Below the pieces are notes generated by a model. It was given only the letters and a program-made list of their open reading frames with translations. It searched no databases and was not told where the DNA came from. A stretch of 64,000 nt of DNA from Escherichia coli (GTDB taxonomy: Bacteria > Pseudomonadota > Gammaproteobacteria > Enterobacterales > Enterobacteriaceae), in assembly GCF_024223415.1 (NCBI RefSeq), contig NZ_CP100500.1. One strand, given 5' to 3'. The stretch's first letter is position 1; every line of letters begins with the position of its first letter. The translations under genes were made by a program, and so were the position numbers. Of the stretch, positions 3,298 through 39,768 are shown in pieces.

Positions 3298-4989
3298 ATG
3301 AAAACGCTGCTGATTATTGACGCTAATCTCGGTCAGGCACGCGCCTATATGGCGAAGACCCTGCTGGGCGCGGCGGCGCGAAAAGCAAAACTGGAAATCA
3401 TCGACAATCCGAACGACGCAGAAATGGCGATTGTTCTCGGTGATTCCATCCCGAATGACAGCGCGCTGAACGGTAAAAATGTCTGGCTGGGCGATATTTC
3501 CCGGGCAGTTGCGCACCCTGAGCTGTTCCTGAGTGAAGCCAAAGGCCATGCGAAACCTTACACTGCGCCGGTCGCTGCGACAGCACCGGTTGCCGCCAGC
3601 GGTCCGAAACGCGTAGTTGCGGTGACTGCTTGCCCGACTGGCGTAGCACACACCTTTATGGCGGCTGAAGCCATTGAAACCGAAGCGAAAAAACGTGGCT
3701 GGTGGGTGAAAGTTGAAACCTGTGGTTCTGTTGGTGCGGGTAATGCAATCACCCCCGAAGAAGTAGCCGCAGCGGATCTGGTGATTGTGGCGGCAGATAT
3801 CGAAGTGGATCTGGCGAAATTTGCTGGTAAACCGATGTATCGTACCTCTACTGGTCTGGCGCTGAAGAAAACCGCGCAGGAACTGGATAAAGCGGTTGCT
3901 GAAGCAACGCCGTATGAACCGGCGGGCAAAGCTCAAACGGCGACCTCTGAAGGTAAGAAAGAGAGTGCAGGCGCATACCGTCACTTGCTGACGGGTGTCT
4001 CTTACATGCTGCCGATGGTCGTTGCAGGTGGTCTGTGTATCGCGCTTTCTTTTGCTTTTGGTATCGAAGCGTTTAAAGAGCCGGGTACGTTGGCAGCGGC
4101 GCTGATGCAGATTGGTGGTGGTTCAGCCTTTGCGCTGATGGTGCCGGTACTGGCAGGTTATATTGCCTTCTCCATTGCCGATCGTCCGGGTCTCACGCCG
4201 GGTCTGATTGGCGGTATGCTGGCGGTCAGCACCGGTTCTGGCTTCATTGGCGGTATTATTGCGGGCTTCCTGGCTGGTTACATTGCGAAGTTAATCAGTA
4301 CGCAACTGAAACTGCCACAGAGTATGGAGGCGCTGAAACCGATCCTGATCATTCCGCTAATTTCCAGTCTGGTGGTCGGTCTGGCGATGATCTACCTGAT
4401 CGGTAAACCGGTTGCTGGCATTCTCGAAGGGTTGACTCACTGGCTGCAGACCATGGGGACTGCGAATGCGGTTCTGCTGGGGGCGATCCTCGGTGGCATG
4501 ATGTGTACTGACATGGGCGGTCCGGTAAATAAAGCAGCGTACGCATTCGGTGTGGGTCTGCTGAGTACTCAAACCTATGGCCCGATGGCGGCGATTATGG
4601 CGGCAGGTATGGTGCCACCGCTGGCAATGGGTCTGGCAACAATGGTGGCGCGTCGCAAATTTGACAAAGCGCAGCAGGAAGGTGGCAAAGCCGCTCTGGT
4701 TCTTGGTCTGTGCTTTATTTCGGAAGGTGCAATTCCGTTTGCTGCTCGTGATCCGATGCGTGTGCTGCCGTGCTGTATCGTGGGTGGGGCGCTGACTGGC
4801 GCAATCTCAATGGCGATTGGTGCGAAACTGATGGCACCGCACGGTGGTCTGTTTGTTCTGCTGATCCCTGGCGCTATTACGCCGGTACTGGGTTACCTGG
4901 TAGCAATTATTGCCGGTACGCTGGTGGCGGGTTTGGCCTATGCCTTCCTGAAACGTCCGGAAGTGGACGCAGTAGCGAAAGCCGCGTAA
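3298..4989 (+). CDS. fruA: Fructose-specific PTS EIIB'BC component
   Basis: 563-aa ORF with N-terminal IIB-like domains and a C-terminal polytopic IIC domain. Confidence 0.95.
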   Translation: MKTLLIIDANLGQARAYMAKTLLGAAARKAKLEIIDNPNDAEMAIVLGDSIPNDSALNGKNVWLGDISRAVAHPELFLSEAKGHAKPYTAPVAATAPVAASGPKRVVAVTACPTGVAHTFMAAEAIETEAKKRGWWVKVETCGSVGAGNAITPEEVAAADLVIVAADIEVDLAKFAGKPMYRTSTGLALKKTAQELDKAVAEATPYEPAGKAQTATSEGKKESAGAYRHLLTGVSYMLPMVVAGGLCIALSFAFGIEAFKEPGTLAAALMQIGGGSAFALMVPVLAGYIAFSIADRPGLTPGLIGGMLAVSTGSGFIGGIIAGFLAGYIAKLISTQLKLPQSMEALKPILIIPLISSLVVGLAMIYLIGKPVAGILEGLTHWLQTMGTANAVLLGAILGGMMCTDMGGPVNKAAYAFGVGLLSTQTYGPMAAIMAAGMVPPLAMGLATMVARRKFDKAQQEGGKAALVLGLCFISEGAIPFAARDPMRVLPCCIVGGALTGAISMAIGAKLMAPHGGLFVLLIPGAITPVLGYLVAIIAGTLVAGLAYAFLKRPEVDAVAKAA

Positions 4990-5412: not shown

Positions 5413-6354
5413 ATGCGCGAAAAGGATTATGTCGTAATTATAGGTTCGGCGAATATTGATGTCGCCGGATATTCACATGAATCATTAAATTATGCGGATT
5501 CAAATCCAGGTAAAATAAAATTTACACCTGGTGGAGTAGGGCGAAATATTGCACAAAACCTGGCGTTGCTGGGTAACAAAGCCTGGCTACTGAGCGCAGT
5601 AGGTAGTGATTTTTATGGTCAATCGCTGCTAACGCAAACCAATCAATCTGGCGTTTATGTCGATAAATGCCTGATTGTGCTGGGAGAAAATACGTCGAGT
5701 TATTTATCATTACTCGATAATACCGGTGAAATGCTGGTTGCTATAAATGACATGAATATTAGCAACGCTATTACAGCTGAATATCTCGCACAACACCGTG
5801 AATTTATTCAGAGGGCAAAGGTCATTGTCGCGGACTGTAATATCAGTGAAGAGGCACTGGCATGGATTCTGGATAATGCCGCCAACGTACCCGTATTTGT
5901 CGATCCGGTTTCAGCGTGGAAATGTGTCAAAGTGCACGACCGTCTAAATCAGATCCACACTCTGAAGCCAAACCGCCTTGAAGCGGAAACCCTGAGTGGG
6001 ATAGCGCTGTCAGGGCGTGAAGATGTGGCAAAGGTTGCCGCCTGGTTCCATCAACATGGCCTGAACCGACTGGTATTGAGCATGGGCGGCGATGGCGTTT
6101 ATTACAGTGAAATCAGCGGTGAAAGTGGCTGGTCTGCCTCGATCAAAACCAATGTTATTAATGTTACCGGAGCGGGCGATGCCATGATGGCGGGACTTGC
6201 TTCGTGTTGGGTAGACGGAATGCCGTTTGCCGAATCTGTTCGTTTCGCACAGGGATGTTCGTCAATGGCGCTCTCCTGTGAATACACCAATAACCCCGAT
6301 TTATCGATTGCCAACGTTATATCGTTAGTGGAGAACGCAGAATGTCTGAATTAA
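5413..6354 (+). CDS. psuK: Pseudouridine kinase (PfkB family)
   Basis: 313-aa ORF, MREKDYVVIIGSANIDV...; matches recalled PsuK/YeiC. Confidence 0.9.
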   Translation: MREKDYVVIIGSANIDVAGYSHESLNYADSNPGKIKFTPGGVGRNIAQNLALLGNKAWLLSAVGSDFYGQSLLTQTNQSGVYVDKCLIVLGENTSSYLSLLDNTGEMLVAINDMNISNAITAEYLAQHREFIQRAKVIVADCNISEEALAWILDNAANVPVFVDPVSAWKCVKVHDRLNQIHTLKPNRLEAETLSGIALSGREDVAKVAAWFHQHGLNRLVLSMGGDGVYYSEISGESGWSASIKTNVINVTGAGDAMMAGLASCWVDGMPFAESVRFAQGCSSMALSCEYTNNPDLSIANVISLVENAECLN

Positions 6355-27953: not shown

Positions 27954-28130
27954 TGTAGGCCGGATAAGGCGTTCACGCCGCATCCGGCAACAGGAGCCAA
28001 ATGCCGGATGCAACGCTGGCGCGTTTTATCCGGCCTACAATAAGCTCAACATACTGATTTGTATGGTTTTGTAGGCCGGATAAGGCGTTCAAGCCGCATC
28101 CGGCGACAGGAACCAAATGCCGGATGCGTC
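27954..28130. repeat. REP/BIME cluster (two tandem units of paired REP sequences)
   Basis: Repeated TGTAGGCCGGATAAGGCGTTCACGCCGCATCCGGCA and inverted GCCGGATGC...TATCCGGCCTACA units in the mglC-preA intergenic region. Confidence 0.9.
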
Positions 28131-32923: not shown

Positions 32924-34050
<1,127 letters not shown>

Positions 34051-34252
34051 TTAATTCGTAAAACGTGCTACCGATCACATTAAGAAATCAGCGCTTATTT
34101 TTTCGCTCCCCGGCATTACGCAATGCGCAGCGAACTCAGGCATACATCAAGCATAGAGAGGGATTGCAGTTTGCAGCAATCCCTCTTTGCAGACCTTTAA
34201 TCCGCTGACCATAGGCGCTAACATAGCGCCTCATTTTTTTGCGGGTGATGAT

Positions 34253-35200
34253 ATGCGTGTGTTACTGGCACCGATGGAGGGAGTGCTTGACTCTCTGGTG
34301 CGTGAATTGCTGACCGAAGTTAACGACTACGATCTGTGCATCACCGAGTTTGTCCGCGTGGTGGATCAACTGCTGCCGGTAAAAGTCTTTCATCGCATTT
34401 GCCCTGAGCTACAAAACGCCAGCCGGACACCATCTGGTACGCTGGTGCGCGTGCAGTTGTTAGGTCAGTTCCCACAATGGCTGGCAGAGAACGCCGCCCG
34501 TGCGGTGGAGTTAGGTTCCTGGGGCGTGGATCTCAATTGCGGCTGCCCGTCGAAAACGGTTAACGGTAGCGGCGGCGGGGCGACGTTACTCAAAGATCCT
34601 GAACTCATCTACCAGGGTGCAAAAGCGATGCGTGAAGCTGTACCGGCGCATTTGCCCGTCAGCGTGAAAGTGCGTCTGGGCTGGGACAGCGGTGAGAAGA
34701 AATTTGAAATCGCCGATGCGGTTCAACAGGCTGGCGCTACGGAGCTGGTGGTGCATGGGCGGACGAAAGAGCAGGGTTACCGCGCGGAGCATATTGACTG
34801 GCAGGCGATTGGCGATATTCGCCAGCGGCTGAATATTCCGGTGATTGCCAACGGTGAAATCTGGGACTGGCAGAGCGCGCAACAATGCATGGCGATCAGC
34901 GGCTGCGACGCAGTGATGATTGGTCGCGGGGCGCTCAATATTCCCAACCTGAGCCGGGTGGTAAAATATAACGAACCGCGAATGCCGTGGCCGGAGGTGG
35001 TTGCTTTGCTGCAAAAATATACCCGTCTGGAAAAGCAGGGCGATACCGGGTTATATCACGTTGCGCGGATTAAACAGTGGTTGAGTTATTTGCGTAAAGA
35101 ATACGATGAAGCAACGGAATTATTTCAGCATGTTCGGGTGTTGAATAATTCCCCTGATATTGCAAGGGCTATTCAGGCAATTGATATCGAGAAACTCTAA
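34253..35200 (+). CDS. dusC: tRNA-dihydrouridine(16) synthase
   Basis: Track ORF is 337 aa; start placed at [14 protein letters not shown] (315 aa); Dus catalytic Cys context (NCGCP). Confidence 0.9.
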
Positions 35201-35572
35201 AAAACCATAGTGATGTTTTTTGACAATGTGTTAGCTCTTTATCAATAGGCCGCACGGTTGTTTGGTGGCGTCAAAATTGCCGAGGCGTTCCCTGAAGGCC
35301 GGGGCAGCCCACATGGATGTGGGCTGAGGGCGCGTTTTACAGGGATGTTACCTCGCGCCCGACCCGGTAGCCGTAAGGGATAAGCCGAGGGCACCGCGCA
35401 GCGGCGATTTTGTTCGCCAGAGCCCGGGGGTGCAGGGGGCGGCGGCGATTGGCCGCCCCCTGCGCGCTCCTTGCGCCAGTGATTATATGAAGCAATGCAC
35501 ATGACAGGAGCGCAACAGGATGAGAGACTGAAATATTCTCGTTATTTTCGGACCTGATGACATTAATTAATT

Positions 35573-35656
35573 TTAAAATATCATCTTAAATACGCCAGTC
35601 ACCACCAGTAGCCCAATCAGGAAAATAATCAATACAGCCCAGAGTATAATTTTCAT
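35573..35656 (-). CDS. yohP: Small membrane protein YohP (27 aa)
   Basis: Minus-strand ORF MKIILWAVLIIFLIGLLVVTGVFKMIF, below the ORF-track size cutoff; matches recalled YohP. Confidence 0.7.
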   Translation of the reverse strand: MKIILWAVLIIFLIGLLVVTGVFKMIF

Positions 35657-35879
35657 TGGCGTTCCTTTATTTGTGAGTGCTGAATAAGTATAGGAAAAAA
35701 CGAAGCCCTTTGCCGTTATCCATAAACGATTAAGATAAATCGGAAGATATCATTCACTTAGTGTATATTTTTCTGGATATGTCGTTTTATTGCCACTGAT
35801 GTATTGCCACGCGAAACTAAAAAATATATCGCAACACACGGTAATCTCCGCGCACCTTTTCTTACCTGATTATTCCCCC

Positions 35880-37316
35880 ATGAATCGTGATTCCTTTTAT
35901 CCAGCCATCGCCTGTTTTCCGCTGTTACTGATGCTGGCCGGGTGTGCGCCTATGCATGAAACCCGCCAGGCGTTAAGCCAGCAAACGCCCGCTGCACAAG
36001 TTGACACCGCATTACCCACGGCGCTGAAAAATGGTTGGCCAGACAGCCAATGGTGGCTGGAGTATCACGATAATCAACTCACTTCCTTAATTAACAATGC
36101 ACTACAGAACGCACCGGATATGCAGGTGGCTGAACAGCGCATTCAGCTAGCTGAAGCCCAAGCGAAGGCAGTTGCCACTCAGGATGGTCCGCAGATCGAC
36201 TTTTCGGCGGATATGGAGCGGCAAAAAATGTCGGCAGAAGGCTTAATGGGGCCGTTTGCTCTGAACGATCCGGCCGCAGGTACGACCGGCCCGTGGTACA
36301 CCAACGGTACTTTTGGCTTAACGGCGGGCTGGCATCTCGATATCTGGGGAAAGAATCGGGCGGAGGTTACTGCCCGCCTGGGTACGGTTAAAGCACGGGC
36401 GGCGGAACGCGAGCAAACCCGCCAATTGCTGGCTGGCAGCGTAGCCCGCCTGTACTGGGAGTGGCAAACCCAGGCGGCGTTAAACACGGTCTTGCAGCAA
36501 ATAGAAAAAGAGCAGAACACCATTATCGCGACCGATCGCCAGCTATATCAGAACGGGATTACTTCTTCAGTTGAAGGTGTGGAAACCGATATTAATGCCA
36601 GCAAAACCCGGCAGCAGCTCAACGATGTCGCGGGGAAAATGAAAATTATTGAGGCACGGTTAAGCGCACTTACAAATAACCAGACAAAGTCATTGAAGCT
36701 TAAACCGGTCGCGTTGCCGAAAGTGGCAAGCCAGCTTCCTGATGAACTGGGGTACTCCTTACTGGCCCGGCGGGCAGATTTGCAGGCGGCGCACTGGTAC
36801 GTTGAGTCATCGCTAAGCACCATTGATGCGGCAAAAGCGGCATTTTATCCTGACATCAACCTGATGGCCTTCCTGCAACAGGATGCGTTGCACTTAAGCG
36901 ATCTGTTCCGTCATTCCGCGCAGCAAATGGGCGTTACGGCAGGCCTGACGCTACCCATTTTCGATAGTGGTCGTCTTAACGCCAATCTCGATATCGCAAA
37001 AGCCGAAAGCAACTTGTCTATCGCCAGCTACAACAAAGCGGTGGTTGAAGCGGTGAATGACGTGGCGCGGGCAGCCAGTCAGGTTCAGACACTGGCGGAG
37101 AAAAACCAGCATCAGGCGCAAATTGAGCGCGATGCCTTGCGTGTGGTAGGTCTTGCGCAGGCGCGCTTTAACGCGGGCATCATTGCTGGTTCCCGCGTCA
37201 GCGAAGCCAGAATCCCCGCGCTGCGTGAGCGGGCCAATGGCCTGTTATTGCAAGGGCAGTGGCTGGATGCCTCCATTCAACTCACTGGTGCGTTGGGCGG
37301 GGGTTACAAACGCTGA
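35880..37316 (+). CDS. mdtQ: Outer-membrane efflux lipoprotein (OMF / NodT family), intact
   Basis: Start placed at MNRDSFYPAIACFPLLLMLAGC (lipobox LAGC), giving a continuous 478-aa ORF. Confidence 0.85.
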   Translation: MNRDSFYPAIACFPLLLMLAGCAPMHETRQALSQQTPAAQVDTALPTALKNGWPDSQWWLEYHDNQLTSLINNALQNAPDMQVAEQRIQLAEAQAKAVATQDGPQIDFSADMERQKMSAEGLMGPFALNDPAAGTTGPWYTNGTFGLTAGWHLDIWGKNRAEVTARLGTVKARAAEREQTRQLLAGSVARLYWEWQTQAALNTVLQQIEKEQNTIIATDRQLYQNGITSSVEGVETDINASKTRQQLNDVAGKMKIIEARLSALTNNQTKSLKLKPVALPKVASQLPDELGYSLLARRADLQAAHWYVESSLSTIDAAKAAFYPDINLMAFLQQDALHLSDLFRHSAQQMGVTAGLTLPIFDSGRLNANLDIAKAESNLSIASYNKAVVEAVNDVARAASQVQTLAEKNQHQAQIERDALRVVGLAQARFNAGIIAGSRVSEARIPALRERANGLLLQGQWLDASIQLTGALGGGYKR

Positions 37317-39595: not shown

Positions 39596-39768
39596 AAAGT
39601 TCTTTGACGTTGCATTGCTGGCGTAAATGTCAGCAATGCAGCATTTCCTCACGATTCTCCTTTGACGATCGCACTTTTTGCTCGTTATGATGGCGTCGCT
39701 AGCCTCAGTAAATCCTTACTCCGGCGGTGCGCAACCCGTGCGCGTGAACCACTATCTGAATGCTCATC

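Follow-up and report, generated by a model that had tools for sequence, protein, structure and literature searches.

In the window (the whole 64,000-nt stretch of Escherichia coli DNA analysed), dusC (yohI) ends with its stop codon at position 35200 on the + strand and the 27-codon yohP gene occupies 35573-35656 on the - strand. Between them lies a GC-rich element whose conservation among copies spans from about 35244 to about 35520, slightly wider than the 35270-35520 delimited in the initial annotation. Its G+C content is 0.64 over 35244-35520 against 0.51 in the 1-kb flanks, and in 100-nt windows over 35250-35499 it reaches 0.61-0.72 against 0.35-0.45 just outside. Comparison with MG1655 gave 100% identity over the 306 nt of 35240-35545 and no mismatch between 32843 and 36161; across 14 kb, 76 substitutions and 1 indel were counted (99.45% identity). 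The published MG1655 region is TRIP1c (NC_000913.3 2229122-2229394), one of the TRIP1 repeats found by Rudd (1999) and revisited by Li et al. (2024, Genes 15:236, PMC10888264). As the window is the reverse complement of this region and 100% identical to it, the repeat, within the limits of both studies, corresponds to 35244-35516, with the + strand as its sense, G-rich strand. TRIP1c therefore starts 43 bp past the dusC stop and faces yohP and mdtQ. Counted from the same stop codon, the segment deleted by Pham et al. (2024) as the core of the replication risk sequence (RRS) at dusC, "58 to 281 bp downstream of dusC", falls at 35258-35481 on the + strand. Judged by sequence and place, the dusC-yohP element is TRIP1c and RRS-dusC, an already described repeat, with a name since 1999 and functional studies from 2023-2026. 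The initial annotation had listed a different repeat family among its possibilities, and this identification as a known family removes the novelty that it had seen in the element.

Additionally, two neighbouring features were recorded. The sole indel against MG1655 over the 14 kb, one extra T at 36027, lies in mdtQ (35880-37316, + strand), which is an uninterrupted 478-codon frame in the window strain and an annotated pseudogene in MG1655. The strain of the window is accordingly K-12-like, but distinct from MG1655. A Peptidase-S11 RNA motif (RF03039, 72.8 bits, above the gathering score) was found at 39684-39764 on the + strand, directly upstream of pbpG.

Previous work describes the RRS as two 222-bp repeats, at dusC and lysO, located about 650 kb on either side of dif (Pham et al.). 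Their predicted G-quadruplex strand, GGGGGTGCAGGGGGCGGCGG, is the lagging-strand template; they stop DNA polymerases in vitro and act at ectopic sites; and the joint deletion of RRS-dusC and RRS-lysO was impossible unless a 200-kb segment was amplified, which makes the pair conditionally essential in K-12 (Pham 2024). Single-stranded DNA peaks of RecA and SSB that depend on the RRS correspond to post-replication gaps (Pham et al., NAR), and single-molecule experiments detected a gap at nearly every RRS encounter, and in about two-thirds of the encounters when the complementary strand served as lagging-strand template (Kusi-Appauh et al. bioRxiv 2026). In the window, the GC skew of the + strand is positive (+0.039), as for a lagging-strand template and in agreement with Pham 2024. 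Since the window reads the K-12 top strand in reverse complement and, by established map positions, falls in the left replichore, we infer that its + strand is the lagging-strand template.

Next, we analysed the predicted fold of the element, which the initial annotation had described as hairpin-dense, with three perfect palindromes. All of them were found in place, two as parts of longer perfect stems. The first, GCCCACAT-gg-ATGTGGGC at 35307-35324, belongs to a stem of 10 nt (35305-35314 with 35317-35326, 100% complementary). The second is formed by GGGCGCG at 35328-35334, which pairs with CGCGCCC at 35354-35360, and the third, GGGGGCGGC-ggcgattg-GCCGCCCCC at 35435-35460, extends to a stem of 12 nt (35432-35443 with 35452-35463, 100% complementary). 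The minimum free energy predicted for the + strand was -143.8 kcal/mol (z = -4.9, with none of 200 dinucleotide shuffles as good) and that for the - strand was -133.1 kcal/mol (z = -5.4 against dinucleotide shuffles), so that the predicted folding of the element exceeds chance.

The predicted + strand structure comprises two domains. The left one is closed by a long stem, P1, whose 5' arm (35272-35287) pairs with its 3' arm (35397-35412) over 16 nt with 81% complementarity, the minimum free energy helix being 35272-35282 with 35402-35412. P1 encloses an inner stem (35297-35303 with 35363-35372) and two hairpins, hairpin 1 at 35305-35326, with the loop core CAUGGAUG (ACATGGATGT at 35311-35320), and hairpin 2 at 35328-35360, built by the second palindrome around ACAGGGATGT at 35339-35348. 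The second, G-rich domain carries, at 35426-35445 (+), the only exact match in the window to GGGGGTGCAGGGGGCGGCGG, the motif predicted to form the G-quadruplex of the RRS "G4 strand", and the 12-bp perfect G/C hairpin at 35432-35463 (+), whose 5' arm overlaps this motif. It ends with a terminal stem, GCGCTCCT / AGGAGCGC, over 35464-35513 (+; 35464-35471 with 35506-35513). The AGGAG found in this last stem is a stem arm and not a ribosome-binding site. A consensus scan revealed neither a sigma-70-like promoter nor an intrinsic terminator inside the element, and no terminator between dusC and the element.

To see what structure is selected, we aligned 14 copies, 7 from E. coli and E. albertii and 7 from Klebsiella pneumoniae, K. 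aerogenes and K. variicola, the latter taken from chromosome fragments filed as plasmids and with 83-86% identity. The consensus structure contains 77 pairs in 12 helices, with 97.7% of the cells paired. Compensatory changes on both sides were present in 19 of these 77 pairs, compared with 9.0 +/- 1.6 in shuffles (0/500) and 1-7 in controls with slid partners. They include 7 pairs of P1 (helices 2-3), 3 of hairpin 1 (helix 7; for example A-U to G-C in Klebsiella), 4 of the 12-bp hairpin whose 5' arm is the "G4" tract (helix 11) and 3 of the terminal stem (helix 12). The K. aerogenes copies even break the G5 runs, with matching changes in the C-rich arm. The loops of both hairpins are invariant in sequence in the 14 copies while the stems covary, an invariance that a simple polymerase block does not require. 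The + strand fold was somewhat better than that of the - strand (alifold -112 against -100 kcal/mol), and the minority cells, with 22 G.U against 8 A.C, also favour it.

As read from this alignment, the predicted fold is under purifying selection with compensatory changes, and the selected structure would be the whole set of + strand Watson-Crick helices and not the predicted G-quadruplex alone. Sequence evolution therefore supports the hairpin architecture as the conserved feature, and does not settle the formation of a quadruplex in addition. In the searched text of Pham 2024, the G-quadruplex is a prediction whose position was mapped through polymerase stops, and hairpins, cation dependence and circular dichroism of the quadruplex are not mentioned. 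For those working on the RRS, the interest of this result is that the entire hairpin architecture appears to be selected, including the arm that carries the predicted G-quadruplex.

The presence and copy number of the repeat, for which the initial annotation had proposed a BLASTN comparison, were obtained by megablast of the intergenic region. TRIP1 is present in 5425 of 5426 complete E. coli genomes, at a median of 3 places (range 1-8), and the 64-kb window holds one copy only. The relatives named by Li et al. 2024 (PMC10888264) lie at aqpZ-lysO (1a), putP-efeU (1b), alx-sstT (1d) and copA-ybaP (1e); the aqpZ-lysO copy has 93.8% identity and the alx-sstT copy, present in about 1668 of the 5426 genomes, 87.6%. 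In Klebsiella, up to 13 places were found in one K. pneumoniae chromosome record, at scattered intergenic sites, and the family is therefore not confined to the pair that flanks Ter. Within one genome, the dusC and lysO copies are closer to each other than either is to its ortholog of the other allele class. A TRIP1b copy was also found on the 243-kb plasmid pEC16-AU-EG1 (L012:4001-4086), where it rides on a chromosomal putA-putP-efeUOB segment; its place on a plasmid is no evidence of mobility.

The genomes differ in the orientation of these copies. At dusC-yohP, the allele of the window, which is that of K-12, was found in 3,308-3,313 of the 5426 genomes, and an inverted allele in 2000 (about 37%). 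The inverted copy is 88.6% identical and is flanked by unrelated sequences of 46 and 74 bp, and the last dusC codons differ too (IDKLR* in the inverted allele in place of IEKL*). A simple site-specific inversion between the two dusC alleles was rejected in view of this identity and of the unrelated flanks of 40-75 bp. In the inverted allele (L006:795-840), the stop codon lies within a hairpin, GATAAGCTGCGAT-N9-ATCGCAGTTTATC, that the K-12 allele lacks. The record NZ_CP026085.1, labelled "strain DH5alpha" and, at 4.83 Mb, larger than the K-12 genome, carries the inverted O157-type dusC allele, and its strain label looks wrong.

Both orientations also occur at aqpZ-lysO, where the O157-type allele was found in 895 genomes. 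Records of O157:H7 and its relatives (e.g., Sakai NC_002695.2) head the lists of O-type alleles at both loci with two places each, and since they have these two places only, both copies are inverted in the O157:H7 lineage and the G-rich strand is the leading-strand template at both loci. Mixed configurations must exist as well, given the different O-type counts (2,000 at dusC and 895 at lysO) and genomes such as GN02050, in which a K-type lysO copy is paired with a diverged dusC copy. Forward and reverse counts had been reported by Li et al. 2024 (PMC10888264), and the RRS papers (Pham et al.) call the sequence and position highly conserved. RRS workers may also find it of interest that the two orientations coexist in nature and that O157:H7 has both of its copies inverted.

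Taken together, we consider that the element is best explained as TRIP1c/RRS-dusC, whose folding + strand triggers a lagging-strand gap, and we give this reading a probability of roughly 0.8. TRIP1c/RRS-dusC is one of a pair of GC-rich repeats of about 270 bp, the partner of which adjoins lysO, placed symmetrically about 650 kb from dif. Others have shown in K-12 that, as the replication fork unwinds the element, its G-rich strand, here the + strand, folds ahead of its copying by the lagging-strand polymerase; that Okazaki fragment is then abandoned, and SSB and RecA load onto the resulting gap, which can reach about 2 kb. At least one RRS is needed unless the 200-kb segment is amplified. The same authors propose that these transient gaps may serve as swivels and so release topological stress close to the Ter macrodomain, and this physiological role is their hypothesis. 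Against the reading stands the lack of a conserved orientation in nature (the dusC copy is inverted in 2000 of the 5426 genomes, and both copies in O157:H7). In the alignment, the hairpin around the G tract is maintained by compensatory changes and the G5 runs are broken in K. aerogenes, which also counts against it.

The element could also work at the RNA level, a reading that would be compatible with the DNA-level role. For the element, the Rfam scan proposed in the initial annotation gave a sub-threshold match to TwoAYGGAY (RF01731), the whole length of the model being aligned to + strand positions 35258-35409 at a score of 30.9 bits (E = 0.037, gathering score 43); the lysO and sstT copies repeat this match at 30.6 and 29.9 bits, also below 43. 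TwoAYGGAY was described by Weinberg (2010) in gut metagenomes, Clostridiales and gamma-proteobacteria as a closing stem with two hairpins bearing AYGGAY loops, and Gardner and Eldai proposed that it binds CsrA. In TRIP1c, loop 1 is AUGGAU and fits AYGGAY, loop 2 is AGGGAU or AGGGAC, with R at position 2, a variant shared with Psychromonas seed sequences, and P1, which closes both hairpins as in TwoAYGGAY, is present with covariation. The left half of the element may be a TwoAYGGAY-class fold in the dusC 3' UTR and a candidate site for a CsrA dimer, whose loops would titrate CsrA or affect mRNA fate.

For CsrA, a SELEX consensus (RUACARGGAUGU) is available, the dimer bridges sites 10-63 nt apart and the SELEX ligands favour short stems. 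The TRIP1c loops, ACAUGGAUGU and UUACAGGGAUGU, lie 28 nt apart, within this bridging distance, and match the consensus at 9/12 and 11/12 positions, respectively. Their invariance among covarying stems and the lack of a terminator between dusC and the element fit an RNA-level role. The loop match is, on the other side, partly circular, as the pattern used in the scan described below was taken from TRIP1; the stems, of 9-10 bp, are longer than those favoured in SELEX; and the loop-closing ACA/UGU of E. coli is replaced in Klebsiella by GCA/UGC and GCA/CGC. The element has no detected promoter or terminator of its own, its orientation with respect to the neighbouring genes varies by locus and strain, with the K-12 lysO copy antisense to both neighbours, and dusC and ybjE are marked "No"/NS in the gene-level CsrA tables of Potts 2017, which may not list intergenic peaks. 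Two more ACAKGGAYGT matches, which may be CsrA-type sites or chance, were seen at 6249-6258 and 63729-63738 (+), making 4 in the window, with the two of TRIP1c, against 0.44 expected.

We then looked for this two-loop arrangement in other bacteria, scanning one genome per species with the pattern ACATGGATGT-N14-26-ACAKGGAYGT, derived from TRIP1, which returned at least 120 stretches. The matches listed include Vibrio, Psychromonas, Shewanella, Acinetobacter, Firmicutes and others, with several metagenome-assembled genomes (MAGs) carrying 10-25 copies, and a closing stem, of median length 31 bp, is present in most of the two-loop stretches among them. The transition mismatches in this stem were compared in 90 distinct elements from other taxa among the matches listed; read on the loop-bearing strand, they were of the G.U type in 141 cases against 24 of the A.C type (p = 2e-21), and from this excess we conclude that selection on the two-loop family acts on the single-stranded form of one polarity. 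With RF01731, two-loop elements from other genomes, used as calibration, scored 26-68 bits, so that many clear two-loop elements also fall below 43 bits and the TwoAYGGAY score of TRIP1 lies within their range. A nhmmer search with the TRIP1 profile reached no E value below 0.1 among the two-loop elements of other taxa, with matches restricted to the loops, and sequence homology between TRIP1 and these elements was rejected on that result. In the alignment of the two-loop elements, MAFFT left the P1 arms out of register and RNAalifold recovered hairpin 1 only, so the Rfam model was used instead.

The genomic setting of the two-loop elements was also analysed. Their orientation was not clearly biased with respect to local GC skew, where the deviation (34/90, p = 0.03) runs counter to what the RRS would predict, nor with respect to the neighbouring genes (37:24 and 33:39), and they had no recurrent neighbour gene or linked transposase, the apparent clusters being spurious ORFs through the repeat. 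Among viral contigs, 26 matched the two-loop pattern, none of which (0/26) had a closing P1 stem, and they look like coding sequence or tandem repeats.

Some individual matches deserve mention. In Lysinibacillus antri (L036:1138-1205), the match to the two-loop pattern falls on the strand opposite a Bacillaceae-1 RNA (RF01690, 48.9 bits) beside 5S rRNA, which agrees with the observation of Gardner and Eldai that the reverse complement of Bacillaceae-1 has two CsrA-like sites. In Parashewanella curva (L031:6939-7207), a TwoAYGGAY-like element is preceded on its own strand, at a distance of about 60 nt, by the 3' end of a group II intron (RF00029, 63.5 bits), and the intron may have homed beside the stem of the element. 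The gammaproteobacterial MAG 132-544 (L080-L093, L103-L108) and the sponge MAG SB0675_bin_1 (L051-L067) have dozens of copies per genome, whose closing stems differ yet stay paired (e.g., CTGGATTTACAGGG / CCCTGGAAATTCAG and CTGCCTTTCCGGGG / CCCCGGAAAGGCAG), a compensatory variation within one genome.

Weighing the end-to-end RF01731 alignment and its calibration, the paired loops, the CsrA proposal for TwoAYGGAY and the single-strand selection of the wider family against the sub-threshold score and a sequence likeness to other two-loop elements confined to the loops, we regard the RNA-level function as unlikely, and the resemblance to TwoAYGGAY and to CsrA sites as a lead and not a finding. 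Only tentatively, then, would we propose that RRS/TRIP1 is a domesticated enterobacterial member of the TwoAYGGAY class whose GGA loops are recognised by a protein such as CsrA, or that TwoAYGGAY elements elsewhere also act as gap triggers. If this were true, the RRS would have a second function, at the RNA level or in protein recognition, and the inverted and double-inverted (O157:H7) alleles would be natural tests of which function is selected.

The repeat might instead be a selfish or relic MITE-like intergenic sequence without function of its own, acting mainly as a substrate for recombination and large inversions. Its copy number (1-8 places per E. coli genome and 13 in the K. pneumoniae record), its variable presence (as for the alx-sstT copy, in about 1668 of 5426 genomes), both orientations at one locus, the position of the copies just downstream of stop codons, often between convergent genes, and the 156 rearrangements between copies documented by Li 2024 (PMC10888264) would all suit such an origin. 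The copies, however, have neither terminal inverted repeats of the transposon type, their ends not being mutual inverted repeats, nor target-site duplications, and filled and "empty" alleles differ by the replacement of 40-200 bp of flank and not by a clean insertion. A clean insertion with target duplication was rejected at alx-sstT and at aqpZ-lysO, where the flanking DNA is replaced. No recurrent neighbouring transposase was found, none of the viral contigs matching the two-loop pattern has a P1 stem (0/26), and the plasmid matches are all in non-mobilizable records, several of them chromosome-sized. The purifying selection suggested for the fold, the conditional essentiality of the pair in K-12 and the programmed formation of gaps argue against a lack of function, and we find this explanation improbable.

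Finally, that the 86-aa minus-strand ORF (35242-35502) encodes a protein is hardly credible, as the initial annotation had held, for the frame is open and starts with ATG but its Pro-, Gly- and Arg-rich product is what GC-rich non-coding DNA is expected to give, it is not conserved among the copies, in which the longest stop-free frame shifts in frame and length with 1-nt indels between alleles, and the variation follows stem covariation in RNA or DNA and is not codon-like.

Compared with known systems, the window element is a member of the TRIP1 family of E. coli K-12 with the sequence and place of TRIP1c and no difference from it, and it is the same element as the RRS of Pham et al. (NAR 2023, 2024) and Kusi-Appauh et al. 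(bioRxiv 2026), with which it shares the G4 motif and the strand relation to replication. With respect to the RRS papers, the present analysis adds covariation that backs hairpins across the whole element and the finding that E. coli has two diverged alleles of opposite orientation, O157:H7 carrying the inverted one at both loci. These, together with the multi-copy state in Klebsiella and the TwoAYGGAY/CsrA resemblance, are additions of modest interest beyond the published work. The RRS themselves are biologically important; only two kinds of genomic sequence have been described that program single-strand gaps in replication, and the RRS are one of them. The pilE G4 of Neisseria gonorrhoeae is likewise a G-rich structure and reportedly gives rise to a gap or nick in replication, but it is a short single G4 serving antigenic variation, whereas TRIP1 is a 270-bp multi-helix repeat.

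REP/BIME elements are also GC-rich, intergenic palindromic repeats near gene 3' ends; they are unrelated in sequence to TRIP1, whose length is about 8-fold greater and whose copy number is far lower. A REP/BIME identity, which the initial annotation had likewise discounted, was rejected, as no naRNA4 (REP) match was found in 34000-37000 even at E <= 10; the only REP-type Rfam match in the window is a naRNA4/REP-derived element (RF02564, 88.3 bits) at 27958-28035 on the + strand. TwoAYGGAY shares with TRIP1 the long closing stem, the two hairpins with A-Y/R-GGA-Y loops and the condition of a multi-copy, non-coding element of gamma-proteobacteria, but TRIP1 has about 50 extra nt inside the junction and a second, G-rich domain, and no primary-sequence homology was detected between them. 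CsrB, CsrC, RsmY and RsmZ resemble TRIP1c in presenting GGA in hairpin loops, with two sites at bridging distance, and differ in having 9-22 sites, against the two or three putative ones that TRIP1c carries without its own promoter or terminator.
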